Assembly (NCBI GenBank): GCA_049999805.1
Contig: JBNGIO010005869.1
Span: 1-64,000, forward strand
DNA length: 64,000 nt
Direction: 5' to 3'
Origin: Folioceros fuciformis
Taxonomy: Eukaryota
The position numbers were made by a program, and so were the translations under genes. Positions 1,663 through 53,977 of this stretch are shown here, piece after piece (positions within the stretch are counted from its first letter, which is position 1; each line of letters begins with the position of its first letter). The notes under the pieces were generated by a model. It had not been told where the DNA came from, did no database searches, and saw only the letters and a program-made list of their open reading frames with translations.

Positions 1663-2650
1663 GAGGATGCCACATATTTTATTTATGACCTAAATAAAAC
1701 GGATAATGATTACTTGACAGATAATGAGGGCAGTTCTACTCCACGCGGTATATGCCAGGACGAAATGTTGTTAGAGCATCTTTCTGGCATCTCTCGAAGT
1801 ATATTACTTGTGCCTCCGTAACAAGCATCGGTACATCGAACCGGCGATCCAAGGTGCGTAGCAAAAAAAATTGATTTGATATCCCCCCCAAAAGGTCGCA
1901 GAAATCCTTGCGACGGGCCCGATGATACGCCTTCCACCGCATCTTGGATTCCTGCAACCCGATACTGAAAAATCCAGTTGATCCGCGCTCTCAAATGCAG
2001 TAGAAAAGGTCCAATCCAGCCTTGCCACAGCGCCCTCGCATCCGTCTCCTTCATCCAGAGCTTGCCCTCTCATTCTTGCACAATGACGAAGCTGACGTCA
2101 AGCCAGCTCAGGCCAAGTGCAAGCAGCCATGTCTGCATCTTCCCGTACCCACATACCTGCAACTTGATCTGCAACATGACCTGCAACACGGGCTACATAG
2201 CAGAAGCTTTAGTCCTCCAGACAGACTTGTTTTGCGAAAGGCAGCAACCTGGACTCTGATTAGCAGCTTATTAGCAGAATCCGGGCCCCGGGGACTTTGC
2301 TATAACTCAGTGCCAGGCTGCCAAAAATGTGAGCTTCCAAGAAGTGGGGAACGAGGAGTAGAAAGAAGACCACGTCTTGCTGCAACTTTAGGGTTTACCT
2401 CAAACGTTGAGATCAGAATTCGGAGTAAGCGAGAAGGGTACTTGGACCAATCTCAGTGCTCGGATATCCACAGGAGTTGGTGATCAGGCGAGTGCGTGTT
2501 GATCCTGCCATGGCACATTGCGAGGATAAGCTTGTACTGCCAGCAGAGCAGTGGCAGCCTCAGCACTGCCCGGCATTGTGCTTGCGCGTGCCCGTGTGCA
2601 GGCTGTCCGTGATGCTGCCCGGGCTGCGGCGTATCTGAGGAGGCCTCGCC

Positions 2651-4609
2651 ATGCCCTGCCACGCCGGATTCTCGCCTGCGGGGCCTGGAGCCGCAGCAGC
2701 AGGTGCAGCGGCTTGTCTCCGGCAACGTGGGGGCAGGCCGGACAGGGTATGCCTGCCGTGTGGCATTGGTTTGGATACCAGGGTTTGGAGGAGCATTGAT
2801 GTAAGTGCTGGTGCGGTGGGAATTGCGCGCAGGCAGCTGGAGCGGAAGCGTCTGTTGAGCAGCGCAGGCAAGCTTGAGTTTCCGGTCTGGTGCGCTGCTG
2901 TTGAAAATCCCGTGCTGGCCGAGTCTGCGTGCGATGCTCTCACTTCCTTGCAAGAAGCCTTGGAGGTGAACGGCAGGGTTGACAGCGGCAGCAGCAGTAG
3001 TCTTCTTGATCACTCTGACTGGAGTAGCAGGGGTGCTGATGAGCAAGTGGGCCATGTCGCAGCTCCGCCGTCGGCAGCCCGAGTGGTGGAAGGAGGGGCA
3101 GGTGATCGGAGTGGCGGCGCCCGCGGTGGATGTGAGGAAGCAGATACTCATGTTGCAGGCACAGGATCCGAAGCAGAGGACAGGGCCGGTACTCTTGGCG
3201 GATGTGAGCCTGCTGATGCTGATGCTGTTCCTTCTTACTTGCGGAGAGTAGGTCATGGTGCCGGCCAAGCCACCTCGGCCTCCCCGCAGTTGCAGTTTGT
3301 GCAGTCCGGCATCAATGCGAGGGAACTGAGCGAGAGTGTGGCGAGGGTGGCAGGAGCTGCCGTAGACGAGGACGGCAGGGAGTGGACGCAGCCAAGCTAT
3401 TCGCGGGACTGTGAGGGAGGCGCGGATGGCACGGGCAAGCTGGCCGCCCCCGCCCTGTCCCCGGCTAGGGCCGGTGCCGGGGCGATGTTGTACAGGTCTG
3501 AAGAGGAGAGCAAGATCGTAGGCACGGCCTGGGAAAAGCTGGTGCGATGGTCCCGTTCGTGGCAAACTTTGAACGCCAGGAGGGAGTCCCACGCCTTGCG
3601 CACCACCAAGAAGGTGGCAGTGCTGGGAGGCGGGTCCTTCGGCACGGCCATGGCGGTTATGCTGGCCCGGAATAAGACGGAGATGCAGGTGACGATGCTG
3701 CTGCGGGATCCTGAGGTTTGCCATGCCATCAACCAGCGGCATGTGAACCCCAGGTACTTCCCACGGCACACTCTGCCGGCCAATGTGGTGGCCACCACGG
3801 AGGCGCGGGAGGCCCTGGGGGGCGCGGAGTACTGCATCCACGCCGTGCCGGTGCAGCATAGCGGCGCCTTCCTGCGTGGCATTGCGGAGCATGTGCCGTC
3901 CAGCCTCCCCATCCTTTCGGTGAGTAAGGGGCTTGAGCTGAAGACGCTGGAGATGATGTCGCAGGTGATCCCGCGCGCCCTGGGCAACCCACGGCAGCCG
4001 GTGGCCGTGCTCTCAGGCCCGTCCTTCTCTATCGAGCTTATGGACGAGCTTCCCACGGCCATGGTGGCGGCCTCGAAGGACAAGGATCTGGCGCGCGCCG
4101 CGCAGCAGCTGCTGGCGTCGCGTTACTTGCGGGTGAGCACCTCCAGCGACGTGGTGGGCGTGGAGATGGCGGGCGCGCTGAAGAATGTGCTGGCCATCGC
4201 TGCCGGGATCGTGGAAGGCATGAATCTGGGCAACAACTGCATGGCCGCCCTTGTGGCTCAGGGGTGCTCGGAGATTCGATGGCTCGCCGAGAAGATGGGC
4301 GCCAAGGGCGCCACCCTGGCGGGGCTATCGGGCACCGGGGACATCATGCTCACCTGTTTCGTCAAGCTCTCGCGCAACCGATCCGTGGGTGTCCGCCTGG
4401 GCTCCGGGGAGAAGCTGGACGACATTCTGGCGTCTATGAGTCAGGTGGCGGAGGGGGTTGCAACCGCCGGTGCCGTTATCGCCCTCGCGCGCAAGTACCG
4501 TGTGCAGATGCCTGTCCTCACAGCCGTGGCGAGGATTCTCGACAACCAGCTCACTCCTAAGACAGCCGTGTTGGCCCTCATGAGCCTGCCACAGGTGGAG
4601 GAAGTCTGA
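2651..4609 (+). CDS. GLY1: Plastid NAD(P)-dependent glycerol-3-phosphate dehydrogenase (GLY1/SFD1-like), single exon, long N-terminal extension
   Basis: KVAVLGGGSFGTAMA Rossmann motif, SVSKGLE, LSGPSF, GALKNVLAIAAG, GLSGTGDIMLTC..LSRNR, C-terminal LMSLPQVEEV. Transit-peptide-like start. The true start codon is uncertain. Confidence 0.9.
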   Translation: MPCHAGFSPAGPGAAAAGAAACLRQRGGRPDRVCLPCGIGLDTRVWRSIDVSAGAVGIARRQLERKRLLSSAGKLEFPVWCAAVENPVLAESACDALTSLQEALEVNGRVDSGSSSSLLDHSDWSSRGADEQVGHVAAPPSAARVVEGGAGDRSGGARGGCEEADTHVAGTGSEAEDRAGTLGGCEPADADAVPSYLRRVGHGAGQATSASPQLQFVQSGINARELSESVARVAGAAVDEDGREWTQPSYSRDCEGGADGTGKLAAPALSPARAGAGAMLYRSEEESKIVGTAWEKLVRWSRSWQTLNARRESHALRTTKKVAVLGGGSFGTAMAVMLARNKTEMQVTMLLRDPEVCHAINQRHVNPRYFPRHTLPANVVATTEAREALGGAEYCIHAVPVQHSGAFLRGIAEHVPSSLPILSVSKGLELKTLEMMSQVIPRALGNPRQPVAVLSGPSFSIELMDELPTAMVAASKDKDLARAAQQLLASRYLRVSTSSDVVGVEMAGALKNVLAIAAGIVEGMNLGNNCMAALVAQGCSEIRWLAEKMGAKGATLAGLSGTGDIMLTCFVKLSRNRSVGVRLGSGEKLDDILASMSQVAEGVATAGAVIALARKYRVQMPVLTAVARILDNQLTPKTAVLALMSLPQVEEV

Positions 4610-4851
4610 CAAAGTGTTACACTCCTCATTTTTCCTTGTGCCATACTCTCCTTCCCTCAGTCCCTGCCCCCTCCATGAGTTGCCCTGGCATTTGCACTCA
4701 CGTGGACTCCTATCCTTTTTCTCCTTGGCGTTGAACAATGCAACCATGGTCTTCCTGTACACACTGTAGCAAGGGCAAGCACCGCCAGGAATGCAGCAAA
4801 ATTACATTCCAGGAGGAATGCGGAAAACCTTTCACCCGATGATGCCTTGAA

Positions 4852-4985
4852 CCTTACTGAGATTTCAGAGTCGGTGACTGAAACGTCAGACTTGGTGACT
4901 GCGACTGCCGAATTGATTACTGCCAATTCAGAGTTGGTGACCGCGGATCTGGAATTGGTGACTGCGAATCCAGTATTGTGATTTG
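4852..4985. repeat. Degenerate 21-bp tandem repeat (~6 units)
   Basis: GGTGACTG-like core recurs at 4873, 4894, 4915, 4936 and 4957. Confidence 0.75.
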
Positions 4986-5081
4986 CAGCTGGCAATTAGC
5001 CACCCCAGTGGAATTGTCAAGTGATTTCGATATGAAAGTGATTTCCAAAACTATTTACAGTACGGTTGAGGAAACAGTTGA

Positions 5082-6097
5082 TCAGCGCAGCAAAGGAGCT
5101 ACTTCTGTCACGTAAGATTGCGCTAGCAGTTCCCCCAGCTGAGCCTGGCCCTTGGTGCTAAGATACACCCCATCGGGCTGCAATTCAAGACCTTCAGCGT
5201 CGACAAAGTAGACTCCTGGCAAGGACGAAACGATCGACCTTTGTGAGCCTCGAACGGTTTGGTACAGCAACTCCACATCAGTAGCAGCCGTAATCCCAAC
5301 CTGCAACCCGACGCCATCCGCTTCATTATTTGCAATTCTCATCAAATCACGAGGCATCTAAAATTCATCATAGGTTAGGTTCAGGGGACAGGCATACATA
5401 CCACAAAAACAGGCACGTTGATATCCAAGTCTGCTCTGAAGCTGGTGATCATACTCTGCAACCTTTCCTGATACAACGAGGCCTCGACTGGTAATCTGGC
5501 ATCGCTCTCGCCCCCGTACCAGATCAGCGATGTGATGCGGCCTCCTAACGCAGTGGAAGCCTCGGCCCGCCTCACCATGATCTCGTAGACCGGCTCTCCC
5601 TTCTGCCAATCACTCATTATGCTGTTGGAGACTGCGCACGGCACAAGGCCGACTCTGGAGCTGGGAGGGAGGCGCTGGCTTTTTGCCACAGCGGCGCCAA
5701 AAGATAGTCCCGGCCCAACCCCCACCGCGCCGTAGCTGAGATCGATGCCCTGGTGCAGAGGCTCCCGGGCGTCCTCCCATTCCAGGAACTCGGTCAGACG
5801 CAACACAGTTCCCCCTGGATATACATCCTCCAAGGGAACGACCCTATCCCACATCCCCAAGCGCACACCGCCTCGCCCCACCATGTTGTATTGTCCCGCC
5901 AGGACCACCACCTCAATTAGGCCTTGCTCTTCTTCACCTGCTAGTAGACACGTGACTCTCAACAGTTAGTACCATAAGGAGCTTATTAATTGGTAGATCT
6001 TCCTGGTGGAAGTCGTTGGTTGAATCTCACTACCTTTCGCAGCTGGTGCATGCAGAATTGCTGTTATGAGGATCAAAATTGGGAGGGGTGATGCCAT
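5082..6097 (-). CDS. Secreted SGNH/CE6-type carbohydrate esterase homolog (At4g34215-like), 3 exons, catalytic residues substituted
   Basis: Exons ~6097-6034 (signal peptide MASPLPILILITAILHAPAAK), 5937-5402 and 5300-5082. Motifs LAGQYNMVGRGG, AREPLH, GVGPG, GLVPCA, WYGGESD, DGVYL. Confidence 0.85.
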
Positions 6098-6752
6098 CTT
6101 GCAGCCTTGCCGATACGCTGAAGGAGTCAGAGCACGGCGCTCATGAGCCCCACAATTTTGTCATGAACATTGCGTTGTCGCAAAACAAAGGTTTTTTGTA
6201 AGTTTCACTCACTTTGAAGTTTGGTCATCGACATTTGAGTACCATTTCCAAGACGGAATAAACATAGGAAACGTGGTCTCTTGGACTGTGATCCTGGATA
6301 CACCCCGGCAAGCTTAGCCTAAAAACGTCTGTTGTGTGCGGGTTTGTTGTCTGCTGGAGAATACATACAGTATGTTGTAGCAGCATTCGTCCCATGGTCG
6401 TCGATTGCTAGGGGTAAACTTAACACATGATGTCCTCAACTCAGATTACTTACCATGTGAATGACCAGCCAGGAGAAAGTATGGTGTTGTGGCGAGTGCG
6501 CTTCACTTTGTTCGATTGATCACAATGTTTACATCACAGAAATCAGCAGTCAATGACATGCTATGGTGTGGATGACGCATCTTGCACGGTAGTGTAAGAG
6601 CAATGAAAGACCGCAAACCAGGGAGATTTCAATGTGCTTCGACAAGAGCGATGGACCATTTTTTATTGCGAAAGATGTTTACTCTACAGAGATCTCATGT
6701 TAGTGTGGATGACAGAGTAACAGAGCAAGTCGGAGCTGCAGCCGTGAAGAAA

Positions 6753-7800
6753 TTAGCTAAACAGTGGAATAGCGTACTGGATGTATGCTTGCGCTAACTT
6801 GAGACCCAGCTGAGTCGCACCCGTGGTGGTGAGATGCAGTCCATCCGGCCCAAGATCCAGGCCCTCTGCATCCACGAAGACGGTGTTACGCAAGGTCCGC
6901 ACCACCGATAGCTGCGCCTCCCTAACCGCGTGGTAAGTGGGTGACGCGTTTCTCATGGTGATGCCAACCTGCCAGTAAGAGCGATCATGTACAACATTAA
7001 TTTATATGCCCGTGTGACGCCACATTCTTGCAGCGAAAGACCAACAATAATGTGCACCAACTTACGATGAAGACAGGTAGATATTTGAGATACAGATCGG
7101 CTCTCAAGTCGGTGATCATTTTCTCCAGTCTGTGCTGGTAGAGTTGCGCTTCCTCCGGGCTCGAGGAATCGGCTTCACCTTGGTACCAGAGCAGGGCGGT
7201 GACACGGCTACCTGATGACAAAGTGGCCTTGGCCCGGCGTACCATGATTTCGTACAGAGGCTGCCCCTTCTCCCAGTCCCGCATCCCTGAGCCCCCGATT
7301 GCGCACGGGACCAGACCGAGTGCAGCTGCTTGACGCAGTTTCCTGCTTCTGGCCACAGTGGCCCCGAACACCAGGCCGGGCCCGACCCCCATCGTGCCCT
7401 CGTCGAGGCCCTCGTGCAGAGGCTCTTGTGCTTCCACCCACTGCAGATCTCGTGACAGTTTCAACACCGATCCCTCTGGATATTCGCACTCAGCCGGGAC
7501 GACGCCGTCCCAGACCCCGTTGCTCACTCCGCCCCTCCCTGACATGTTGCTCTGCCCCGCCAGGAGCACGGCTTCAATCACCTTGAAATTGTCACCTGAT
7601 TACAATCGATGCAAGACAGCGTCAGTGCGCGTACACTTGACTTAATTTCTGCTGGTAGTGGTCGTGCTTATGGCTACGGAAACCCCCCAGTCCCAACTCC
7701 CAATTGGGAAATGCTGGTGATTGCCCTTGCCCTACTCACCTCGTACTGGTGCAAGAACAAGTGTAAGCAAGAGGAACACGATGGGCGTGGGTGCTGCCAT
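6753..7800 (-). CDS. Secreted SGNH/CE6-type carbohydrate esterase (At4g34215-like), 3 exons
   Basis: Exons 7800-7740 (MAAPTPIVFLLLTLVLAPVR), 7595-7066 and 6968-6753. Canonical GQSNM, GLVPCAIGG, WYQGEAD and DGLHL motifs. Confidence 0.92.
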
Positions 7801-8486
7801 CCTGATCCTGCCCCGGCCTCCAAGGTTCGCGATTGTGGCAGGCTCAGGTGCAGATTTATTCAATTTGTTCTAGTTGCTCGTCACCTTCCGCCGGGCTCGC
7901 TGGCCAATGGCAACACGCTGCGCGCACCGAGGCAGAATAAGCATAATTTTGTAAGCATAACAACATGCATCCTTGTTTGTTGGAATAAGCCCTCTAACCA
8001 AAGCTTTTTTGGTAGTTTACGAACCTCTTTCACATGATGTCTCAAGAGAATGGTCGGGAAGGTACGTGTCTCCTGCATCTACAATGAGTATCCTGGTGAT
8101 ATTGGTTGGATCCACGAAATGAATTAAAATTAAAATTATACGTAAATCCATAGCTTTATTTCGGTCACGGGAGAAGTTAAGGACCCAATAACTTGATTGA
8201 GGCAACCCCAGAAAACCTTTTTTCTTTTTATTTCATCTTCGCCCCCAAACTTGGGGAAAAAAGAACATTGTGTATAAAGAAATGGTTTTAAGCCTCTAGT
8301 CAAACCCTAAAAATTTACACAAGGAAACAGAACATTGAATTCTTATAATTAATTTTAAAAAATATGTTGTACTCCCTTTTACTATGTCTTTAATATTTAT
8401 TACATCTTATATTAAAAACGTGAGGATATTATTCTAAATTATAGACTAATTCAGATATGAAGTGTCATAATCATAGCAGTTCACAT

Positions 8487-8735
8487 ATAGAGAACATAAA
8501 GGATTCCAATCTTTTCGACAACCCTATAAAATTTTGGATAAAAAAACAAAACAAAAACCTTCAAGCATACAAATCTAAGAGAACATAAAAGGATTTCCAT
8601 CTCCACAACAACACTATAGAACTTTGGCCGAAAAAAGAAAAAACTTCATGCATACAAATCGTAGAGAACATAAGGATTTTAATCTTTTTAATAACAATAT
8701 AAAACTTCCAATAGAAAAGAAAAACTTCAAGCTAT
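8487..8735. repeat. AT-rich degenerate ~85-90-bp tandem repeat (3 units) in an AT-rich island
   Basis: AGAGAACATAA(A)GGATT..AATCT...CAA...TATA recurs at ~8489, ~8578 and ~8663. Confidence 0.7.
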
Positions 8736-11262
8736 AGCAGTCTTAAAGTTCAGGTGTTGTACATGCTATTAGCATATTATAGTTAATTTCAAAACATTTT
8801 AATTTCATATTTTTAGTATTTAATTTTATTTATTTTTTGATAAAATATCATTTATTGTCAAAGGTAAAATAACTTTAGGACTCCAAGTTTGACCTAAAAT
8901 TGTGTATTATATACATCACTCAAGTATGAAATGTCTTAAGATATTTAAAAATAAAAGAAAAGTTTTAGACCACACCTAAACATGATTTTGCGGAGATGTG
9001 GTAGAAGGAGGTCGACAAGTCCCCCAAGGCCACACGAATCACTGGCATTAAAAGTCAATCCCGGCCACAAAAGGACCCACAATTTACTGCTTTATCAAAG
9101 CAAATTCATTTTTATTCAAATTAAATTACTAAATTTCAAAAACAATTCAGAACCCACAGAGCTTGCAGACTTGGACAAGGTATNNNNNNNNNNNNNNNNN
9201 NNNNNNNNNNNNNNNNNNNNNNNNNNNNNNNNNNNNNNNNNNNNNNNNNNNNNNNNNNNNNNNNNNNNNNNNNNNNNNNNNNNTGTACCACAATGAAAAT
9301 GGCCCTTCATTAGTGAAGGATTTCTTCCATCACCTATAAGGGTCAGAGTTTTGCTAGTGCCGTAGAATATTATGAAATTGGAAGAGGTGGCCTCCATGAT
9401 CATATTGTCTTCAATGCAATTGCCTTATGGCGGTAAGGCCACACAACCCGCTCAACTGCGTCTTTCGCTCGCACAAGAAGATTCGCCATCTTCTTTGCAT
9501 TGAGGGTGGCTACCGATCGCGCACGCACATCACACCGGGTTTGACATTTGAATATAGTCATTAGCAAGGTGATTCATAGGCGCCTTTGTCACTCGAAACT
9601 TGGGTAGGCCATTGCCGCACTTGTGATCGCCTGTCCTCTGAGCCATCCGAGCGGGAGCTACGTCGTGTCAAGGACATAAACCTCCTGTCCATCCAGTGGG
9701 GGTTGTCATAGCGATTACCCGTGTTTGCTTGAATTTGGTTGCCGAACCAACCGAGACCCACAGCTTTGAAGCATGCCATCGGAGGAAAGGCCAGAGCGTA
9801 GGTAGCACCTACATATAGTGCACGATAATGCAGATGCCACCCTCGGGGATTGGAGGATGGATGATGATGATAACACCCTCGTCTTCCAGGTCGCTCCTCC
9901 ATCAGTGCATGTGCCAGCTCCTTCCAGCACTGGCCCATCAACGCCTAGCACCTCTTCATCGAGCACCATCTGCAGCACTGCAGATGGTCTTGCTTTGCTG
10001 CAGGTTCCCGCAGCCAACGCTAGGTATCGCCCATGGGCAATTCACCGTTCTCGGGAGGTTGAAATGCCACAGCCTACTAGATCAGTCGTCTCGTTGCGCC
10101 AGCGGGAGACCTGTGCGCCAACTCTAATTTGCCCCCTACCGCTAGACGTTGACACGATGAGGGCCGCCTCCTGCAATATTCCCGTCACTCTGCGTAGAAA
10201 TCATGGGATAGGTGCCACTGGATCATATAGACGGTTGCGTGCTTTGTGTGATTCACCCACGTTGGGACGTGTTCACCTCAAGAAATTGAAGGATCATAGT
10301 GCCTAGCAACCGCATTTACGCAACAATCCCTTTAGGGCATGCATCCAGCGGGAGTCGCAGGCTTGGCCGGCGAATCACTCTTGCGCAGTGCACCGTGGTC
10401 GAGCTACATGTTCCCTCAACAATGCCAGTGGGAGCAACATACGATGGCTCGAACCTTTGAGACGGGCACTGTCGCAGCAAAAATTGTTGATGCAATTGCA
10501 CGTTTGTTCCACTTGCCACGAAAGCTCCCTACAACCGGGATGCTTCATTGAGCGCCTCCAAAGGCAAGCAGCACGCACCTCACCAATGGCGATTCTATCG
10601 AATGAGCCTCTTATTTTCCCCCCTGGCAGCATCGCGTCTTAGAGTGCTCACCAGTTGCAGTCTCAGTTGCTGTACGTTTGGAACACTTCAATGCACATGA
10701 CTGAACACATGGTGCAGGCACACAAGGAGAAGGCTGGTGTTTTGTCCTTTGACGTTGCTCCGTGCGACATGGGTGGAGATCAGGACGACGACGATTGCAC
10801 GGATGAGGAGGACCAACCGCCTAGACTTGTCTCCGTTGGCTCAGGGGATAGAGGGCATCCTATCGAGTTGAGGGGAGAGGCATCCCCTAACCTTAGTGGC
10901 ACCGACCTCACTAGAGACGAAGATTGTTGTATCGTGGCTCCATGGCCACAAAGTCGCTTTACGGCCCCTCTATTGGGAGTGCAAAATAATCCAGGCCGCG
11001 TTTTAGCTGTGGAAGATGTGGAATGTGTGGGGCCTGAGAGGCCTGTAGAGACGTACGATTGTCTTGAGAATGCCTGGCAAATTGCTGCCCGTCAACAAGA
11101 GCAAGCAAAGCAGGCTGCCACCCATGTCCCGCTAAGAAGAAAGAAGAAGCACTATGACCTTGAGTCCACATCGTTTTTTACAATGGTGGATGAAGCACGG
11201 GCACGAGAAGGGGAGGTCGGTGGGAACGAAGAGCACGCTACAGTGTTGGTAAGCTGCAATTT

Positions 11263-13060
11263 GTGCTAGAAAGGGCCATCGGCGTGGTTGATAGTGACGG
11301 CCAGGCTTTGGTCCGCCAAATCGCCGGTCTCCCTAGTTTTGAAATGTTCGATGTTGCAATGATTCAAGGGTTTATATCCGAACGCACGTCACCAGTTGCT
11401 GTATTGATTAGGCTGTTCCATGAGGTGGACTCGACCATCAACCTCGTGGACGTAAAGGCTGAAGACTTGAGCAAAACTTGGGCTGCCAGTAACCTCGAAC
11501 ACACCTTTGATGAGGTGGAGTTGCTACGCCTCCAAGCTTGTCATCGAGTTTGGATGCAACTACGCACGCGCCCCACTTGCGATGGGCTGCATCTTGGCAT
11601 TGACATAGATGCAATGAGTCTGGACACAACACAAGAGGCGTACAACTCAGCGAATGCAGCAATGTGCTGCTATGCCGTGACTCACAACACACTGCAGCTG
11701 ATCTTGGGCCAGCAGCTGCGACGAACACTACCCACGGACGTGTTGAAAGTAAGAATTGTGGGTAGGGCATGTACCACCCTCCACCGGTTCGTCGTCTTCC
11801 TTACAGTTGCTGTGGGGTACGTTATGCAGGTGGAGGCAGGCATGGAGTGCGGGGCACTGTTTGACCACTTCCGGTGCCACGAAGATCAAATGGGTGTGTT
11901 CCCGGAGTTCAGGGTGCAGTACATCTCGGGGCACGATGGAGGGGGGGTGATTGAGGCTGTGACCATTCATGCTAGGGGCCCGACGTGGAGGTGCATCACC
12001 GAGGCATGGAGGCAATTCTGGCAAAATCCAATGTACATGCATTGTGTGTTTCAGGTTAGGGACGGGCATGGTTCTAACAGGCCTGTCTAACATATTCAAC
12101 AGGGGAAACCGACGTCCGGCCTCCACGAAACAGTCGTGAGTATCAATTTGGCCAACCTGCAACATGCTTCATTAGTGTCAATGTGATTACAATGTAATGG
12201 TTCGTGTGGTCCTTCTAGGCACGGTTTCTTAGCTTCCTTGTGTATTTGGTGCTTGCCTATGGTGTGGAGGTGTCCAGGCCCATGACAATTGCAACGCTTG
12301 CTCATGCTCTAGGAAGCCAAAAGTATGGTGTGCATCGAGCCTGGCAAGATCCACTTGGCTCATCATTCCTTCAAAAAGCATTCATGAAGGCTTGTTTCCC
12401 TGAGCTCGTGTCCGTACTTGGGTTGCTGAAAAAGGCTGCATGGGCTTTTGCTAACCGCCAGGCAGCTGCAATCAAGGAAGGCGTGGCTCTCATCACTAAA
12501 GCTGGCCCTACGTTTTTCTAGCATTTTGCACGTCTGCAGCCAGGCCCTCATTTTGGCTTCGATGTCACAGTGCTGCGTGAACGACCTCCGAAGAGTTTTG
12601 CAGCTGCCTCCCAGTCGGTGGGATGATTGGACTTCAAGGGTTTAGGCATGTTGTACATAGTCTGGAGGCTCGTGTCCTCCTTCCAATGGTGGACACCATG
12701 TCTCTAGAGGTCATTTGTTATTACTTCTCGGGATCCCATGTTTGCAAGCCAGAGGAGTTCATGCGCACCACCGCATTCCAAGCGTGCTCAATGGAGACGA
12801 AGGAGATGTACACTACAACAGGCCGGGCACTCAGCTTTTCACAACGAGCAAAACTCTACACTTTCATCACATATCGGGTGTTTTTTGGAGATAGTGGCCC
12901 CATGATAGAGTGCGAGGTGCCCCTCCTTGCAAATGGACAATTTACCACCGCGAGAATATGCATGGGCACCCTCTTGCTTCCACTGTACGATTCGGCATCG
13001 GCAATGCAGGACCGCATGGACGTGGCAATCACTCACAACGTTGTGTACGGGATGGCGTAG
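11263..13060 (+). pseudogene. HECT E3 ubiquitin ligase-like domain, disrupted
   Basis: N-lobe-like FRVQYI...ARGPTWRCITEAWRQFW and AAAIKEGV. C-lobe-like LSFSQRAKLYTFIT...FTTARICMGTLLLPLYDSASAMQDRMDVAITHNVVYGMA* resembles the HECT terminus (LPxAHTCFNxLxLPxYxSxExLxxKLxxAI...FG). Several internal stops. Confidence 0.7.
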
Positions 13061-14159
13061 CCAAGGTTGGCAAGCATGAGGGTGACTTGTTGAGCACAAG
13101 TCATGGTAGCAATGTTGTGATGGTGTCTGTGTTTGTAGCAATCGTGCATGAGTTGATTCAGAACTTGTTGTGTTCTTAGTGCAGTAATAAATGAGGCCGA
13201 GTGACTGCCCCTCGTACCTGTCTACGAGCACCCTTGTGAGCAGGGTTGTGGACATCGATGCACAACATTTACACAATCGGGAGAAGCAACCACACTTGGA
13301 TTGGCATGCCTTTGCATGGAAGGGTGAGCAACTCTCACCATATATGGACATGCGGTGGGTTGGAAGAGGTGGTAAGCAATAGCCCATACAAGGGAGTTGC
13401 ACCGAGCTAGAGGACAGGCTTGGGTCGCACATTGCGGCGTGCAAGTGGGTTGCCGTCATTGGCTCAGATGTCCGGCTATGAATGCAGGAGTAGGGATGAA
13501 ATGCACCGTCATTGTGACATTCGAAGACCCTTTCGTGGTAAGACAATAACTGGATAGTGTGCAGTTATTGGCACCATGGCATTTAAGTGCATGGTCAGCC
13601 AAATTAGCAAAAGCCGCCCGCTTGCAGCACCGACCGCAGCAAGAGGGGCGAGTGATCATAGCTACCATAGCTAGCCATCAAAGCCGATTGATGCGTCATT
13701 TGGATGGCTGACCAAGGGGCACTCGAACCTTCGTCCCCCTTAAGGACGCCAATTGGACACAACACACGAGACATGAAGGAGACAAACGAATGGCGGTATG
13801 AGGTTCTCATTGGGATCGGGGTTCAAGGAGGAAGCTCATTAGCTACAGCAGTGTAAGCGAGAGCGGAAGCCCTGGGATGGGTGCCAGGCAAGGGGCATGG
13901 AGCAAGGGATTGAGTGAAGGTTACATTCTGTAGAGAATTGGCAAGGAGGCGAGGGGGTAGGAAGAGGAGGTGTGGATGAGAAGATTTGGATGTGCCATAG
14001 AGCTTGATAGAGTTAGTGATGCCGCGAACACAAGGGGGGGGAGGAAGCGGCGAAGAGCACAAAGAAGGTCTCTAGGAAGGGGGGAGGATGCGTCGGTGGT
14101 AGGGGTGCCCATTACAGCCAAATGAATTGGAAGCAATTGTGCTGGAAATTAGGTGAACA

Positions 14160-15383
14160 GGTGGCACGCTGAAAGATTTGGCTGCTTGGCTTGGGTGTGT
14201 AGAATGGACGTTGAGGAGATGGTTAGCTAGTTGTCCGGGGTGGGCTAGTGCACACACAGGGCAGAATTTGACAGTGGAGACAGTGGCATTGATCATTGTG
14301 GAACATGTACCAATTACTAAGCATGCTGTGACTTGGGGGGTGGGTGTAGTGTCTACTGCTTTGCGGGATGTGGGGTACAACTTGCCGAGGCAAAAAAATT
14401 GCTGCTACATTGCAAGCATTGCAACGAGAAGCTATGGCAATGAGAGCTAGGGTTCGCATGTGACGCATGCACCGATGTACATGTGGCACATGGATTTTAA
14501 GTGACACCTTGGTTCATAGATGAGGGAGAGAGTGACTAATGTTGTAGGCTTGTGGTAGGGGGCTTATGACTTCTCACTTTTTTGCATGCACTTCAATCCT
14601 AATCATTGATCTTGTTGTAGCATACAATAAGATGTACATGTTCCACGTGAGGGTGCACCCAGCCATAGATGGTGCGACATACTACATAACGTAGGTGGTG
14701 CTAGCAGACAACAAGAGGGCTGAAACGATCTATGATACATATGAAGGGGCAGTGGAGAAGTTTGGTCACCCAGAGCACATCCGATCGGACTCTGTAGTGG
14801 AGCATAACCTAGTGGAGTCAGACTTTGTGAGAGTGAGACCTCGGGAGAACGGTAGCAACTTCATCTGAGGCCCATCGATGCACAATCAGGTGAGGTTGCT
14901 TGCATAGGCGATTGTGGATAGAAAGACATCAATGAAGTTACAAGTAGGTGTAAGATGCGTTTGTATATAGAGGTCGCACACCCTACACCTTATAGGCATG
15001 GCATATCCCTAATGGAGGGGTGTGTGTGCGGGATGCAGAGGACGGAGCACTTTTGGAGATCATTAAAGGAGAAGTGGAGATTTTTGTACAAGGGGTATAT
15101 GCTGGATTTGCAAGCAAGCAACGAGCTGGACACAACAAACCTATGGCATGTTCACTCACTATATGCGGCATTCATGCCAACCATGAAGAAGGAGCTGATC
15201 ACCTTCATTCGCATGTGGAATTTGCATAAGGTGAGGAAAATCGTTTGTGCAGATGGGGACATACCAAGCCATGTTCCAACTGAAGCTTTTCAAGAAGCGA
15301 AGCGACTTGCTGGGGTGGTTAGGTTGCCTTCGTATGGAGTATGCAATGACGACGATGGTGACTACATGATTCTAGGGCCATAG
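14160..15383 (+). pseudogene. IS3EU-like (integrase-core) DDE transposase, 3 exons, inactivated
   Basis: HTH-like LKDLAAWLGCVEWTLRRWL; GVGVVSTALRDVG; PMYMWHMD (14484-14495). Exon 14621-14889 reads YNKMYMFHVRVHPAIDGAT..LADNKRAETI..AVEKFGHPEHIRSD..FI*GPSMHNQ. After a GT-AG intron, the exon from 15039 reads RTEHFWRSL...FIRMWNLHKVR. In-frame stops and frameshifts are present. Confidence 0.8.
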
Positions 15384-15984
15384 TTTGCACGGAACAATGC
15401 ACTTGAAGAGGCAGCCTTGTAGGAGGTTGCATTGTTGACAGGGGTAAAGCAATTGCAATATGTGTGGATCACTATGTAAAGGTTTCAGTTGCATGTTCTT
15501 ATGTAAGAGTTGCCTTTGTAGGAGCTAGAAGACACAAGAGATCAGGCATATCGAATTTGTCTGGAGAGTATTAAGAATGTGCTAGATGCATATCGACTGC
15601 ATCAGTGTGCTAGTATTGTAGGCGAAGGGGTGTGCACTTCGAAGTCCAAGTGTGGACATGAATTGAGGAGGGGTGCAATCTTTGGACCTGGCGGGCTATC
15701 AACCTTTTTCGTGGCTTGTTTATCGAAAGAGAGTAAAGTGGTAAGAGATTACGGGTAGAACTTTTTCCTTGGCTTGTCTATGGAAGGAGAGTAGAGGGGT
15801 ACGAAGGTAGCGGTAGACCCAATGTGGATGTTGCACAATGCTTAAGTGATAAGTAGATAGTGGACGTTGCACAATGTGTAAGTGACAAATAGTATAGAGC
15901 AATGGAACATAGTAAAAATGTGGTTGATGATGAGAACCTAAAAAACTAAGCACGAGGAAGTTCTTTGCGGACTATCAAGTGTTA

Positions 15985-16335
15985 GCTGGAGGAGGCTGGA
16001 CAAATAGGTGGATTCGCAGCACCGAAGGTTATGGCTGATTCGCAGCATTGAAGGTTATGGCCAATTCGCAGCACCTCCTGGACNNNNNNNNNNNNNNNNN
16101 NNNNNNNNNNNNNNNNNNNNNNNNNNNNNNNNNNNNNNNNNNNNNNNNNNNNNNNNNNNNNNNNNNNNNNNNNNNNNNNNNNNTCGCAGCATTGAAGGTT
16201 ATGGCCAATTCGCAGCACCTCCTGGACAGATGGGTGGATTAGCAGCACTGATGGTTATGGACAATTCGCAGTACCTCCTGGACAGAAATGTGGATTAGCA
16301 GCACTAATGGTTATGGCCGATTCGCAGCACCTTCT
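15985..16335. repeat. Tandem array (~56-bp unit with ~25-bp subunits) spanning an assembly gap
   Basis: GCAGCAyTGAwGGTTATGGmCrATTCGCAGCACCTCCTGGAC is repeated, and an identical 44-mer lies on both sides of the N run. Confidence 0.85.
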
Positions 16336-16442
16336 GATGGGCAATCCTATGTAGGCAGATAGCGATTCCGCTCACATGGGCAATGTAATGTAAGCAAAGA
16401 ACCATTACTAGCGGACTTTGTGTCCGGTGCGATTGTCTAGCA

Positions 16443-16537
16443 ATGTTGTGGGTTGGTAGGCGAGGGGTATTGTGGGTTGGTAGGCGAGGCGTATTGTGGG
16501 TTGGTAGGCGAGGCGTATTGTGGGTTGGTAGGCGAGG
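16443..16537. repeat. 24-bp tandem repeat x4
   Basis: GTATTGTGGGTTGGTAGGCGAGGC units. Confidence 0.9.
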
Positions 16538-16925
16538 CCAGGCTAGGATCGGTCCTCTAGGGATAATGTTACTCGGGGGCACTGGCAACCGAAGTGGATG
16601 AGAGGGCGGGATGTTTGGAAAAATCGGCCGAGGGGGATGAGTGCGCATTGAGGCTGTTTCTAGCTAGCGATGCCCCGCATATCCTAGAGCTATTGGGATC
16701 CTTGCAACAGGAAAAAGAGAGCTGTTGGGATCCTTGCAGCAGGCACATCGCGGCATGGAGCCTGCAGGAAGATTGGGGCTGGAGCGGCGCCTTGCATCAG
16801 AGAGCCTGCAGGAAGATTGGTGCTGGAGGGGTGCCTCACAGTGTGGAGCCTGCAGCAAGATTGGGGCTGGAGGGGCGCCTCGTAGCCTAGAGCCTATACG
16901 AACAGAAGGGCTGGAGGGATGCCTC

Positions 16926-17183
16926 TGACAAAATTAATAAAAAGGTGTAAATCAATTGCATATAACAATTACATTATATTGTGTATATATCAAGAAGAGT
17001 ACATTAAAGAATAAACCAACTTAACTTAATCTATTTTGAAACGACGTGACCTTTAAAAACTAGAGACGCAACCCTAGTGAAAAGGTAAGTGAATGTTAAT
17101 AACCTACAACCCACTTCATACTATATATGCTGCTTGATAATAACTAGAACTTAAGTAATGATAAAACACCCGTTCACCCATTA
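16926..17183 (-). repeat. 3' LTR
   Basis: Direct repeat of 23472-23729 with 5 mismatches by manual alignment. Confidence 0.95.
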
Positions 17184-17245
17184 CTCGCACTTGTTTAATC
17201 ATTACGAAAAAGGACTTGATCTGTTTGGAGCGGCGGCGGGAGCAG

Positions 17246-17752
17246 ATGAAGATGATGGATCCTTTACCCGGCTGTGCTGAGGAGCAGGCGAAATATCCAG
17301 AGGGTTGGCCAACGCAGGCTGATCAAAATCTGATCAGCCACATGCTCGACACGCTGAAGAAGTGTGAAGAAGTTCAGGAGTCGCTGAAAGCAGCCAGATG
17401 CAGAGTCCTGGAACTTCGTGATTTGATGGACAGAATCCCTCCTCTCGAGCCGCACATGTTTCCTCTTCAGTTCGATGAAGTGCGACAGCTGGTGAAGGAG
17501 CTGGCCAAGCTGGGGTTTGTGGGGACTGTAGGTGAGGAGCCAGGAGTTGGCTGCGCCTATGATCCTTTCCCGCCAGAGAGAAACTATAAGATCTTCAAGC
17601 CTACCTTCTCCTTGTGTGAAGTAACTAGCCTGCAGGAACTGTTCACGATTTTATCTTGCTATAAGCTTTATCCACTGAACAATCTCTGTTTGTATGTTTC
17701 AGCTGGCCACGTGAGGCCATGTGGGCACAAGCCTGCCTCCAACGGAAGGTAA
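17246..17752 (+). CDS. Extra antisense ORF between pol and the 3' LTR, unknown function
   Basis: Open ~168 codons from ATG (MKMMDPLPG...), with a helical/coiled-coil-like segment. No recognisable family. Confidence 0.45.
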   Translation: MKMMDPLPGCAEEQAKYPEGWPTQADQNLISHMLDTLKKCEEVQESLKAARCRVLELRDLMDRIPPLEPHMFPLQFDEVRQLVKELAKLGFVGTVGEEPGVGCAYDPFPPERNYKIFKPTFSLCEVTSLQELFTILSCYKLYPLNNLCLYVSAGHVRPCGHKPASNGR

Positions 17753-17800
17753 ATTTCAGCCGTAATAGAGACTTGCATACTCCCACTTGCTAGGCTAGGT

Positions 17801-20800
17801 TTATGTAGGTTGTGATGCTGGACAGACTTCATGGCTGCCCATGCCAAGGCTTCTCATATGCCTATTGTGTATGTCCCTGCTGAGGGACTTAGTAAAGATG
17901 TCTGCTGGGTTGTCTGTAGTTGGCACATACTCAAGAGCTATCTGGTCTGATTTAACAAGATCCCTGATAAAATGGTACTCCACCTCCACGTGTTTTGTGC
18001 GAGAGTGGAAGATTGGATTTTGTGCCAAGTTCATTGAACCATGATTATCCGTTTTGATGGTGGTGCAGGTTGGGAGGGGTAGCCCAAGCTCCTTAAACAC
18101 CAACTTACACCAGGCAATTTCCTTAGCAGCAGCGGTAAGAACTCGATACTCAGCTTCTGTACTTGAAGTGGCTACGGTAGGTTGTTTCTTGCTGGACCAG
18201 CAGATTGGTCCTCCAGCAACCATAACTACATAACCAGATACTGACCTTCGTGTGTCAACATCACCAACGTAGTCAGAGTCCATAAAGACATCTAACTCAA
18301 GCTGTGAGCCAGGTATGTATCTGAAATTGAGCCCAACTTCTGATGTTCCTTTCAAATACCTAACCAATCTTTTAACACCTGTCCAGTGCAACTGTCCAGG
18401 GTTCTCAAGGTACTGAGAAAGTACACTGGTAGCATAAGCAACATCAGGTCGTGTTGTGTTGGCTACATAGATAAGTTTACCCACACCCTTCCTATAAGGG
18501 ACTGACACCATCTGGTTCTTGTCTCTTTGTGCTTCAGGACACATGGACTTACTGTACTTCAGCCCAGAGGGTAACGGGGTTGCTGCTTGTTTGGCATCTT
18601 TCAAACCAAGCTGCTCAGCACACTCCAGCAAATACCGAGGCTGGGTAAGAGATATGGACTTGTTTTTCCTGTCTCTCTTGATTAGAACTCCTAAACAGCT
18701 TTGAAGAGCTCCAAGGTTTGTCATTTCAAACTTGGAGGATAACAACTTGTTGATCTTTGTGATGAATGTAAGGGTGTTGCAGGATAGAATCAAATCGTCA
18801 ACATAGACTGCAAGATAGCACACCACATTTCCAGATCTGTAAACATATAAGCTGCTATCAGAGATACACTTGATGAAACCCAATGCACGCAGCTCTTCAT
18901 CAAGGACTGCATTCCATTCAAGGGCTGATTGCTTCAGCCCATATAGTGTTTTCTTAAGAAGTAGGACATGATCCTCTTTGCCTTTTACTTCATAGCCTGT
19001 GGGTTGTTGCATACAGATTTCTGTATCTAGTTTCCCATGTAGAAACGCTGTTTTCACGTCAAACATGTCTAACTCATAATCATGATATGCTGCCAGGGCA
19101 CAGATAATCCGAAAGGTAGCAAGCTTCATGACTGGAGCATATGTTTCAAAGTAATCAAGCCCAGGCACTTGTGAGAACCCACGAGCAACAAGGCGTGCTT
19201 TGTATCTGTCAAAAGAGCCATCAGCTTTAACTTTGAGCTTGAAAACCCATTCATAGGATACAACCTTCCGTCCAGGAGGTAATTTAGCGAGTTCCCATGC
19301 TCCATTCTTGATCAATGAATCATATTCAGATTGTATAGCCTTTTTCCATTCAGCTTCATCAGGTCGGCTAATAGCTTCTTCATAGGACTGAGGTTCAATA
19401 GGGTCCAATAGAGTAGCTGCATTAGCTGTAGGTTTTCTGAAATCCTGTTACTGATAGAAATCTGGTGCCCGTCTATCTCGTACAGGATAACGGCGAGCAG
19501 GTGGGAAAGGCTGTACAGGTGGCAAAGACTGGTCAAGACCACCTTCATCATCACTGTCATGAGGATTAGCAGAATCAACAGATGCATCCTCATCAAAATC
19601 TGGAATGGGATCTGGCGGAGCAGGTAAAAGGTCAAGTGGATTTGCAGCAATAGGAGGAGGTTGCTGTTGCAAGTCAGCAGGAACATCTAATTCCTCTGAT
19701 GGATGGGCTAACACCGGTTCATGCTGCGGTGTAGGCTGCAATTCATGCTGTTCTTCCCCCCCTGCAGGAGCAACCTCCTCAGGAGCAGGGTCAGGAAAAG
19801 TGGTAATAGCAGGCAATAAAGAGAAATCAATGTTCCATGGAGACCCCCCCTCAGTAGGAACAGCTCCCACTGGCTGCCAAAAGTGAGCTTCATCAAAAGT
19901 CACGCTGCGAGCATAGATGACTTGATTGTGAGGTATGTCATATAACTTATAAGCTTTAATACCCTCAGTATATCCAAGCATAACCAGCTTGAGAGCCTTA
20001 GCAGCTAACTTAGATCTTTTCTTCTTTGAAATGAAAGCATGGGCAATGCAGCCAAAAGTTCGAAGATGAAGAATAGCTGGCTTCCGACCATAGAAGGCTT
20101 CATAAGGAGTTTGTCCAGGTACAGCAGTTATAGGCAACCGGTTGCGAAGATACACAGCTCTCATAAGGGCTTCAGCCCAATAGGATAAAGGCAATGAAGC
20201 ATGATGGAGCATGGAAGAAACCATCTCCTGCAGAGTCAAGTTGAGACGCTCAGCAACACCGTTTTGCTGAGGTGTATACACAACTGTGAGTTGTCTGCCA
20301 ATGCCTTCTTCTCTGCAAAATGCCTGAAATTCATTGGAGGTAAATTCTCCACCATTATCAGAACGAAGTGTCTTAAGCTGCTTGCCAGTCCACCGTTCTA
20401 CAAGTTTTAGGTAATCCTTAAACAGAGAAAAGCATTCATTCTTAGCTTTCATAATGTAAGCCGTGACGAATCTTGTCTTATCATCTGTGAAGGTAAGAAA
20501 ATATTTGCCTCCTCCAATTGAAGGCTGGGACAAAGGCCCACATATGTCAATGTGAACAAGCTCAAGAACATCAGATGCCCTATGAGGAGTCTTGTTCTTG
20601 AAGGCTGCCTGATGGCGTTTAGATATAACACACGCCTCACATAATGGTAAGGGTGGTAGGTTGCCAATCTGGCCATCACTGTATAGATTACTAACAGCAA
20701 GTTTCTGCAACTTAGTACTGTGAGGATGACCTAAGCTGATGTGCCATAACATGGCCTTAGCTTTCTGCTTGACAACTGTTTCTGGAGATCGTGAAGCAAG

Positions 20801-22198
20801 AGTTGCTGTAACATCACTAATGTGAGTGTGCAGCCTGAACAGGTCAGTGTCTAACGACCCATAGGCTAGGATCTTACGATGATCAAAGGCATCTAAGACC
20901 CTACATTCTGTTGGAGTGAATAGTGTATGTGTGTTGTTATCTAAATTCATTTTCCTAACAGAAATAAGATTCCTTGTCATTTCAGGCACGTGGAACACAT
21001 CTGTGAGTAGAAGTGTGATGCCTGAAGGGACAGGGAGCTTGACTGTGCCAATACCTGGACACATAAGCCTGCTATCGTCACCTAGGTAAACAAATCTGTC
21101 GTGTACTAACCTGTATGTGACGAATGCATTTCTGTCGAGACAGATGTGCGCTATAGCACGTGTATCAAGGAACCATTCATGCATGGGCTTTCCTTGAACA
21201 CTCATGGACAGACACGTAGGATTAGCAAGGGGATGTAGAAACTTCCTGGTACCAACAGTAAGAGCTGAAGGTGAGCCATGCTTTGTCACAACAACATGTG
21301 TCTGAGAAGTGGAGTTGCCCTCCTTGCGAGGTACCCCGGCCTGCTTCTTTCGACACTCATTTTCCCAGTGGCCTGGAATTTAGCACCAATGGCACTTTCC
21401 AGCCTTTTTGGGTTTCTTCTGTGCAATAGCTCCCTGTGAGCTACTAGCACCTGAGGTATTCTGTCTACCTCTGAAGTTTGGCTTCTTATTTTTGCCTTTA
21501 TTGTTGTTGATGTATAAAGCTTGCTGCTTACCAGGACGTTTGAATTGTCCTCTTGCAGCTTCCTCTTGAAGGAGAGCTCCCACAAATTCTGCAAATGTGG
21601 GTTTGGGGAGAACAACATTTGCATCCTTGGCAATCTTCTGGCCTTGCAGCTGCGAAGTGTTATAGGAGGTCACGAAATGTAACCAAGATTCTGAGAGGCT
21701 CATCATAAAGTGCAGAATGAGTGCTGAATCCTTCACACTTTCCTATGCTGCACTTTCAAATTTGGAGATAAGAGTTCTGAAAACTGCTAGGTGTTTTTCA
21801 ATAGACTCTCCTTCTTTCATTCTCAAATTTTGTATATTGCGAAGTGCTGCCATTTGAGTTGTGTCATCTATTCCAGCGTACAGGTCCTGAAGCCGCGTCC
21901 ATATCTCAGCTGAGGTTTTGCAACCAGAGGTCTGTCTCAACATATCAATCGTCAGACCACTCCGGATAAGGTACTGTGCCGCTTCATCCTTGATTGTCCA
22001 GGTATCTATTGCCTTCTGCTCAGCAGTAGTTGGAGTACCTATGACTGCAGGAAACTTTTCTCTTCTGCTGGCCCAGGCCCACAACAGCTTGTTTTGTAAT
22101 GCTCCTCGCATCCTAATAACCCAGATGTCATAATCTGCCCCCCCAAACCTATCTTTCTCCCTAAATCCCTCTCCCGGTAGGTTAGCAGTGTCACCCAT
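17801..22198 (-). pseudogene. Copia gag-pol polyprotein, one frame with three premature stops
   Basis: UBN2-type gag, CHWC*IPGHWENEC zinc knuckle, WFLDTRA protease site, GAG-pre-integrase, rve (VHIDICGP, LRSDNGGEF, PQQNGVAER), RT (YVDD) and RNase H. All ORF pieces share one frame, with stops at 21743, 21380 and 19448. Confidence 0.93.
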
Positions 22199-53491: not shown

Positions 53492-53977
53492 TACTCTCTG
53501 CTCGCGCGCCTTTTCAATGTTTATTTACTTGCAAAATCAGCTCATTAATCTTTCATTTACAGCCCGAGATACCTGTAAGCGGTAGGTGGACAAACCTAAA
53601 TGTTCTTTATATTAAATGATCCTAGAATCCGATGTTTGATGACGATTAAAGTAGAACCCACATGACGGCATGGGCCCAGTGGGTCCACATGATGCTCGTT
53701 CTCCATAGAGGACGGTACGCAGACTCGTCCCACAGTCTTCACTCTCTGGTCTCCTGCGGCACCCGGAGGCATCTTCAAGCACGAGTTCATATGAAGCCGC
53801 TGCCTGCGGAAACGTAAAGCATTTAGACATTCCGGAACAAACTTCAGAACACCATCGAGAATCGAAGACCGGCCTTGGTTGTGTTGAGCCGTTCCGAGAT
53901 ATCCAGAGCGAGCGGTGTTGCGAGACATCCCCTTCCAACACGTCCAATGGGAGCAGAAGCTGCAGGTTTCCACGTTA

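Follow-up and report, generated by a model that had tools for sequence, protein, structure and literature searches.

The window analysed here is a stretch of 64,000 nucleotides (nt) from Folioceros fuciformis (contig JBNGIO010005869.1, positions 1–64,000), and all coordinates below are window positions. On a 6.8-kb assembly piece (9284–16083), flanked by runs of 100 N (9184–9283 and 16084–16183), the forward strand carries the remains of a DDE transposase gene and, upstream of it, a gene that ends in a region resembling the C-lobe of HECT ubiquitin ligases. About 1.1 kb separates the stop codon of the HECT-like gene (13060) from the first detectable piece of the transposase (14157), and both genes lie on the same strand, as an earlier interpretation made without database searches (the sequence-only reading) had described. 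The region is probably a single copy of a dead cut-and-paste transposon of the IS3EU/GingerRoot superfamily in a land plant, which keeps its transposase and a divergent HECT-like gene. The features of the pair are listed below, with lengths in amino acids (aa) for open reading frames (ORFs) and with positions on a hidden Markov model (HMM) of related integrases where these apply.

10643–11269 (+): stop-free frame of 208 aa upstream of the HECT-like gene; no Pfam match at E ≤ 0.1 and no relative found
11194–12090 (+): 298-aa ORF, presumed N-terminal exon of the HECT-like gene
12055–12218 (+): candidate GT..AG intron (CAG/GTTAGG ... TTCTAG/GCA), frame-compatible between the 298-aa and 100-aa ORFs
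12219–12521 (+): 100-aa ORF, presumed middle exon, at the expected position of the N-lobe; no Pfam or PDB match
12581–13060 (+): C-terminal part of the HECT-like gene with a natural stop, the Cys codon at 12959–12961, and a Tyr four residues from the end (Pfam, E6AP, ESM-Atlas, and HMM)
13061–14156: spacer between the HECT-like gene and the integrase; no domain in a Pfam scan of its ORFs
14157–14447 (+): integrase pre-core with helix-turn-helix (HMM positions 141–213, E 0.0023); ended by the stop at 14448–14450
14451–14501 (+): short WHMD piece with the first catalytic Asp (HMM positions 242–251, weak)
14621–14889 (+): integrase core exon with HPAIDG, IRSD (second Asp), and GPSMHNQ (rva_4, E 8.9e-11)
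14890–15038 (+): GT..AG intron of 149 nt, splitting HNQ/R(T)E; read from the sequence
15039–15383 (+): C-terminal core exon with RTEHFW (catalytic Glu) and WNLHKVR, to the stop codon (rva_4, E 9.5e-9; HMM positions 339–406)

The transposase and the HECT-like gene

All transposase motifs quoted in the sequence-only reading are present on the forward strand: WHMD at 14484–14495, HPAIDG at about 14656–14673, IRSD within 14695–14868, GPSMHNQ at 14869–14889, RTEHFW at 15039–15056, and WNLHKVR within 14922–15383. The catalytic D, D, and E occur in conserved contexts (WHMD, IRSD, and RTEHFW) by both sequence and HMM alignment. With stops rendered as X, 14458–14889 matches the Pfam family rva_4 (PF24764, "Integrase core domain"; cutoff 26 bits) at 42.3 bits (E 8.9e-11, profile positions 17–103), and 14922–15383 matches it at 35.7 bits (E 9.5e-9, profile positions 92–169). 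An HMM of 14 full-length metagenomic integrases aligns with five colinear pieces that span 14157 to about 15240, and the window integrase is 30–40% identical to metagenomic rva_4 integrases (tblastn). Against longer proteins, neither the N-half nor the C-half of the integrase yielded relatives, and a metagenome search with the C-half gave 62 pattern matches, none of which was confirmed.

On these rva_4 matches, the transposase is assigned to the IS3EU/GingerRoot superfamily, whose DDE transposases are of the IS3/IS481-like integrase type. IS3EU and GingerRoot are reported to group as a single lineage (bootstrap 99%), the elements of which have TA..TA ends and make 6-bp target-site duplications (TSDs), according to the available part of the published account (Kojima and Bao, 2023; PMC10045372). 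The tie between rva_4 and this lineage is provided by two bounded metagenomic elements (L111 and L081, described below), which show the hallmark 6-bp TSDs together with TATGG..CCATA ends. The proposal that the transposase is of IS3EU type, and not an ordinary integrase of a long terminal repeat (LTR) retrotransposon, is thus upheld: the LTR-type rve profile reaches 22.1 bits on 14458–14889, under its cutoff of 32.6 bits. An LTR retrotransposon integrase was considered as a candidate and rejected on this score and on the absence of reverse transcriptase, RNase H, and gag from the forward strand of 9284–16083. A Copia element at 17801–21379 lies on the opposite strand and has its own rve integrase.

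The transposase gene was also correctly recognised as spliced. A canonical GT..AG intron at 14890–15038 joins GPSMHNQ to RTEHFW, and the junction restores the superfamily motif HNQRIERLW; one paralogous contig (see below) matches both flanks of this intron, and its middle is equal in length and diverged. Between the WHMD piece at 14451–14501 and the next core piece there is either an intron or a frameshift. In-frame stops number at least three (14448–14450, TAG at 14692–14694, and TGA at 14866–14868), and the transposase gene is inactivated in the window copy.

The 159-aa ORF at 12581–13060 matches Pfam HECT with an E-value of 4.1e-5 over profile positions 165–304 of 306; its score of 23.8 bits is 0.1 bit under the cutoff of 23.9. 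The codon at 12959–12961 encodes a Cys that aligns with the catalytic Cys of E6AP, in an alignment with the E6AP C-lobe that spans the last 39 residues of the ORF and is weak by E-value (0.18). The nearest ESM-Atlas clusters are HECT in 30 of 30 cases, and this Cys is the sole invariant column in alignments of 37 and of 33 HECT-like ORFs. An HMM of metagenomic transposon-linked HECT C-lobes, from which the window was excluded, recovers the ORF with an E-value of 3.5e-4 (16.5 bits) and ranks it first among all 922 window ORFs, the runner-up having an E-value of 0.13. Because the only HECT-like ORF of the 922 sits by the integrase, a chance neighbour is unlikely. A C-lobe that keeps a Cys at the catalytic position, as first read from the motif, is therefore sustained, with the Pfam score as its borderline element. 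A score of 48 bits for the window ORF on the in-house HECT model was set aside as circular, since that model had been built with the window sequence included. The AlphaFold2 model of 12581–13057 is of low confidence (mean predicted local distance difference test score 56.7), and a Foldseek search of the PDB with this low-confidence model gave no match at E ≤ 0.001, the top rows being mostly HECT domains at E 0.6–3.

The three ORFs of the HECT-like gene (298, 100, and 159 aa) have no internal stops and can be joined by frame-compatible GT–AG introns. Such pairs are numerous, so that the joining is not proof of one gene; the candidate intron at 12055–12218 has the best-looking sites, judged by eye, among 16 compatible pairs. 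When the region was simulated 1000 times with a Markov model, a stop-free run of at least 298 codons appeared twice. The 298-aa ORF has no phmmer match among 1.84 billion representatives and no usable match in the ESM-Atlas, and phmmer searches of the PDB with the 100-aa and 298-aa ORFs gave chance-level rows only. An N-lobe was recovered neither with an HMM of eight long transposon-linked HECT-like proteins nor with hhalign, both staying within the level of reversed controls, nor by a Pfam scan of ten further forward-frame ORFs; the N-lobe may be too divergent to detect. The stop-free frame at 10643–11269 overlaps the 298-aa ORF by 76 nt in a different frame, and may be an N-terminal extension severed by a frameshift or unrelated sequence.

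The frames of the window HECT-like gene are thus open yet extremely divergent. The two genes had been described as similarly decayed, and in this respect the description was wrong: the integrase is broken by its in-frame stops, whereas the HECT frames are open.

HECT-like genes beside rva_4 integrases in metagenomes

Metagenome contigs were scanned for the back-translated motif HNQRIERxW, which gave 120 loci, with the motif in the frame of an integrase-like ORF in 113. Their rva_4 scores are 177–266 bits in five long loci, and 132 bits for each half of a split integrase in locus L065. One locus (L084) has an evident HECT C-terminus adjoining its integrase; an in-house HECT HMM seeded from it and iterated on the loci alone found 48 HECT-like ORFs. 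A HECT-like ORF is present in 39 of the 113 loci, and at least 12 different record prefixes are represented among the metagenomic loci. Alignment A1 contains 36 metagenomic ORFs from the 48, of which 29 match Pfam HECT (E ≤ 0.01) and no other family. A profile of alignment A2 (33 rows, one of them from the window) matched 77 PDB sequences; all 60 of those shown are HECT ligases, the best match being HUWE1 (7.4e-16). The sequence-only reading had placed HECT/G2E3-like ORFs next to such integrases in animal genomes, and the survey bears out the pairing for HECT-like ORFs.

Where 2.5 kb or more is present downstream of the integrase, 21 of 33 loci have a HECT-like ORF no more than 3 kb away, in every case on the opposite strand (convergent); where at least 3.5 kb is present upstream, such an ORF lies upstream in 1 of 10. 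Over all HECT-bearing loci, 36 of 39 are convergent and one (L065) is tandem. No HECT-like ORF is seen in ten loci that do extend 2.5 kb or more beyond the integrase on the downstream side (L002, L011, L025, L043, L076, L082, L094, L101, L103, and L109); the gene may be absent from these, another accessory gene may be present, or the copies may have decayed past detection.

Two elements are bounded precisely. L111 contains an element at 5980–9044 with the TSD GTTTAC, and L081 an element at 3867–11052 with the TSD GTAGCT; both TSDs are perfect and 6 bp long, both elements end in TATGG..CCATA, and each encloses an integrase and a HECT-like gene. Long inverted repeats flank both genes in a further six loci (L003, L018, L050, L086, L015, and L093). 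Across 36 loci, integrase and HECT similarities are weakly correlated (Mantel r 0.21, a value reached by 6 of 2000 permutations).

The gene order of the window, with a HECT-like gene followed on the same strand by an rva_4 integrase (here split, 132 + 132 bits), recurs in L065. This AT-rich contig holds two diverged HECT-like copies that face away from each other, at 5621–8882 (−) and 10812–12915 (+), one of them directly 5′ of the rva_4 integrase; the locus may comprise two elements inverted relative to each other or a single composite one. In L044, HECT-like ORFs lie 2.4 kb from an rva_4 integrase, and the ORFs of this locus are 81–91% identical to an 880-aa "unnamed protein product" of Rhizophagus irregularis (P0002). 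P0002 matches Pfam HECT at 51 bits over profile positions 144–304, the same part of the profile as is matched by the window ORF, and was the only match of the A1 profile among proteins of 651–2000 aa, with no plant relative recovered. P0002 thus belongs to the transposon-linked HECT family and is full-length; unlike the window pair, the genes of L044 stand head to head.

In L015, a single-frame HECT-like ORF of 673 aa at 3167–5185 (−) is extended at its N-terminal side by a long region, about 100 residues of which form a repeat rich in Gly, Thr, Ser, Asn, and Pro (units like GTSNGTSGIVP). This ORF has no Pfam match at E ≤ 0.01 and scores 135 bits on the in-house model.

Genomic setting and paralogous copies

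The surroundings are plant-like by Pfam (LRR receptor kinases with LRRNT_2, a 708-aa PPR protein, a purple acid phosphatase, a glycerol-3-phosphate dehydrogenase, and Copia), and they support the assignment to a land-plant host. One LRR receptor-like kinase with an LRRNT_2 cap is a single frame of 1054 aa at 28614–31778 (−), and in another, at 50631–53524 (−), the LRR and kinase parts lie in separate frames. A 656-aa open frame at 2639–4609 (+) encodes an NAD-dependent glycerol-3-phosphate dehydrogenase in its C-terminal half (Pfam, 165 and 144 bits), preceded by about 320 N-terminal residues that contain no recognised domain.

To the right of the HECT/integrase pair, past the N gap and tandem repeats, the Copia-type pol at 17801–21379 (−) is almost intact, with two long frames (548 and 643 aa) that cover GAG-pre-integrase, rve, Pol_BBD, and SH3_retrovirus domains. 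Three tandem-repeat families occur at 15996–16925, on either side of the N gap at 16084–16183: a 56-nt unit present four times, a 24-nt-spaced unit present five times, and a 44-nt-spaced unit present three times. These repeats may delimit the element on its right side or be unrelated satellite. Between them and the Copia element lies a 195-aa open frame (17165–17752, +) with no Pfam match.

Self-blastn and tblastn found no second copy of either gene within the 64-kb window. Paralogous copies are represented in contigs from sequencing runs of the same organism, taken at a likeness to the window of at least 80%: there are one to two extra paralogous contigs over the stretch 11825–12603 of the HECT gene, and up to seven over the integrase stretch 14608–15442, with the maximum over 15109–15275. 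Both genes are thus repeated, the integrase more so. Three of the paralogous contigs have G at position 14693, so that they read TGG at 14692–14694 and the TAG stop is private to the window copy. Differences between window and paralogues are mostly transitions; in run X1, A>G and T>C changes total 68, vs. 41 for G>A and C>T. The window therefore has A or T more often where the paralogues have G or C, which fits deamination decay of the window copy. Run X4, which is guessed to be RNA, supplied three short contigs, one of 170 nt identical to 13626–13795 and two from paralogues, and no splicing was seen in these three.

Origin, possible function, and relation to known elements

The preferred explanation, a dead IS3EU/GingerRoot transposon that contains both genes, has several observations against it. 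No terminal inverted repeats (TIRs), TAYGG..CCRTA pair, or TSD was found around the pair in a search of 7000–19000. The N gaps bound the assembly piece, so the ends of the element may be missing or decayed; membership of both genes in one element is accordingly drawn by analogy with the bounded metagenomic elements. The order seen in the window, with HECT upstream on the same strand, is a minority arrangement (one tandem locus vs. 36 convergent), and the excess of integrase contigs over HECT contigs means that many copies may be without the HECT-like gene. The HECT N-lobe is unrecognised in any forward frame of 11194–12580 by Pfam, PDB, or hhalign searches. The window HECT-like ORF is no closer to transposon-linked HECTs (16.5 and 11.0 bits) than to Pfam HECT, and shows no pairwise similarity with P0002. 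The loci that were counted had already served to iterate the HECT model, and the comparison set consists of the metagenomic loci and P0002, with no plant relatives. The window HECT-like C-lobe therefore adjoins an rva_4 transposase as in the metagenomic elements, and its membership in their particular clade is not assignable.

Part of this evidence would suit an origin of the two genes from two separate IS3EU/GingerRoot-type copies, juxtaposed by nested insertion, truncation, or rearrangement, in which case the tandem order in the window would not be a native architecture: convergent loci predominate, decay is unequal between the genes, and the region is rich in repeats (Copia at 17.8–21.4 kb, the tandem repeats, and gaps on both sides). 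We consider such a juxtaposition unlikely, given that the tandem same-strand order exists in L065 and that neither a TIR remnant nor a TAYGG end was found between the two genes. The contrast between three stop-free HECT frames and at least three integrase stops, together with the rarity by chance of the 298-aa ORF, would also be compatible with a functional host gene that may be an ancient domesticate of such a transposon and now lies next to a dead transposase. However, the absence of any homologue of the 298-aa part among the representatives searched would be surprising in a conserved host gene; the borderline HECT score, the unrecognisable N-lobe, and the lack of splicing in a contig of the putative RNA run that is colinear with DNA contigs likewise make this origin quite improbable.

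A captured fragment of an ordinary host HECT gene (UPL-type), or a chance pseudogene neighbour, appears very improbable as the source of the HECT ORF. Capture is a known property of the group: host gene fragments of 84–1,654 bp are present in 28.6% of GingerRoot elements, but the captured fragments are 79–98% identical to their parent genes, as stated in the available text of the GingerRoot paper (Cerbin, Wai, VanBuren, and Jiang, 2019; PMC6839031), and the window ORF reaches only 23.8 bits against HECT. In addition, the ORF is stop-free to a natural C-terminus, unlike a recent copy or the product of neutral decay, and the same pairing is found in 39 unrelated loci. The HECT-like gene had been presented as a cargo of the element; from the sequence comparisons, it seems instead to be a second gene that recurs in the superfamily, and not a cargo acquired in the window element.

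For an active member of the dead IS3EU/GingerRoot transposon favoured here, the following mechanism can be proposed. The transposase would bind long TIRs that end in TAYGG..CCRTA, and would excise and insert the element, leaving a 6-bp target duplication. The HECT-like protein would accept ubiquitin from a host E2 via its invariant Cys and transfer it to a host or element protein; its substrate could be a factor involved in silencing or restriction, the chromatin of the target site, or the element's own transposase. The invariance of the Cys suggests a working thioester-forming ligase. Possible parallels, as enzymes of the ubiquitin or SUMO system that are encoded in transposons or multiplied with them, are the G2E3-like HECT genes of animals put forward in the sequence-only reading and the ULP1/OTU protease genes carried by plant MULE/CACTA elements and Helitrons. 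Ubiquitin- and SUMO-system proteases are known as transposon cargo, as are DNA demethylases in fungi. The TET/JBP and alpha-kinase genes of fungal IS3EU elements make an analogous role against host control plausible for the HECT-like protein; for the accessory enzyme of the fungal elements, the available part of the paper records its authors' proposal that it counters host silencing (Kojima, 2025; PMC12730594). More tentatively, and as a possibility that we rate somewhat below even, the HECT-like ligase could be an old, co-inherited core gene of a large share of IS3EU/GingerRoot elements, with carriers among fungi, plants, and other eukaryotes, and a working enzyme that is either used against the host or needed for integration.

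In itself, the window element is a modest find: it adds a new, dead copy to a superfamily that had been described from non-seed plants before. IS3EU-type transposases had been regarded in the sequence-only reading as foreign to the standard transposable elements of plants. This does not hold: GingerRoot was described in 2019 in the lycophyte Selaginella lepidophylla, and the accessible portion of that description also places it in bryophytes, fish, corals, and other animals (PMC6839031). With publications from lycophytes and bryophytes, the presence of the superfamily in a land plant is not new. The recurrent HECT-like second gene is apparently an undescribed and widespread variant feature of IS3EU/GingerRoot, although curators may know of it. 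A literature search found no report linking HECT with IS3EU or GingerRoot, or describing a ubiquitin ligase that regularly accompanies a transposase, Repbase entries and the supplements of papers lying outside that search; neither HECT nor ubiquitin is mentioned in the available text of PMC6839031, PMC11934779, or the preprint 10.1101/2021.09.26.461848, and the word HECT does not occur in PMC12730594. If the HECT-like ligase were indeed a working core gene, IS3EU/GingerRoot would be the first superfamily of transposons with a known E3 ligase of its own, and would offer a direct handle on the manipulation of host protein turnover by DNA transposons. Many eukaryotic gene models annotated as "HECT domain-containing" could then be transposon genes, and the published plant GingerRoot elements (3.9–12.9 kb), for which the available account describes the DDE region alone, would merit re-annotation.

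Compared with established HECT ligases (E6AP, HUWE1, and the NEDD4 family), the transposon-linked proteins share the catalytic Cys of the C-lobe, followed by a hydrophobic-Pro-x-Tyr motif, and an aromatic residue four residues from the C-terminus. They differ in their low Pfam HECT scores (17–33 bits for the transposon-linked ORFs, and 23.8 bits for the window ORF); in the window gene, the N-lobe, which is the E2-binding part, is unrecognisable, and no substrate-binding domains were identified. With GingerRoot and IS3EU elements, the window copy shares an rva_4-type DDE transposase with the motif HNQRIERLW, a helix-turn-helix ahead of the core, and a weaker rve match. A further trait of the superfamily is a core flanked by neither an HHCC zinc finger nor a GPY/F motif; beside the core of the window gene, the helix-turn-helix-like region was mapped. 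Its metagenomic relatives have 6-bp TSDs, TATGG..CCATA ends, and TIRs of 100–340 bp, and the TIRs of GingerRoot are given as 100–150 bp in the part of the original description that was available (PMC6839031). Unlike those elements, the window copy has no detectable ends; and the accessible portions of the published accounts name only a transposase and captured fragments, with no HECT-like gene.

The closest parallel in gene content is with the IS3EU elements of rusts and truffles, in which, according to the available part of the report, TET/JBP dioxygenase and alpha-kinase genes accompany the transposase, the accessory gene is oriented opposite to it, and the elements have TAYGG..CCRTA ends and 6-bp TSDs (Kojima, 2025; PMC12730594). 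In both cases, a gene for a second enzyme stands beside an IS3EU transposase; in the fungal elements, as far as that report is available, this enzyme is an alpha-kinase or a TET/JBP dioxygenase, whereas in the element described here it is a HECT-like ligase.

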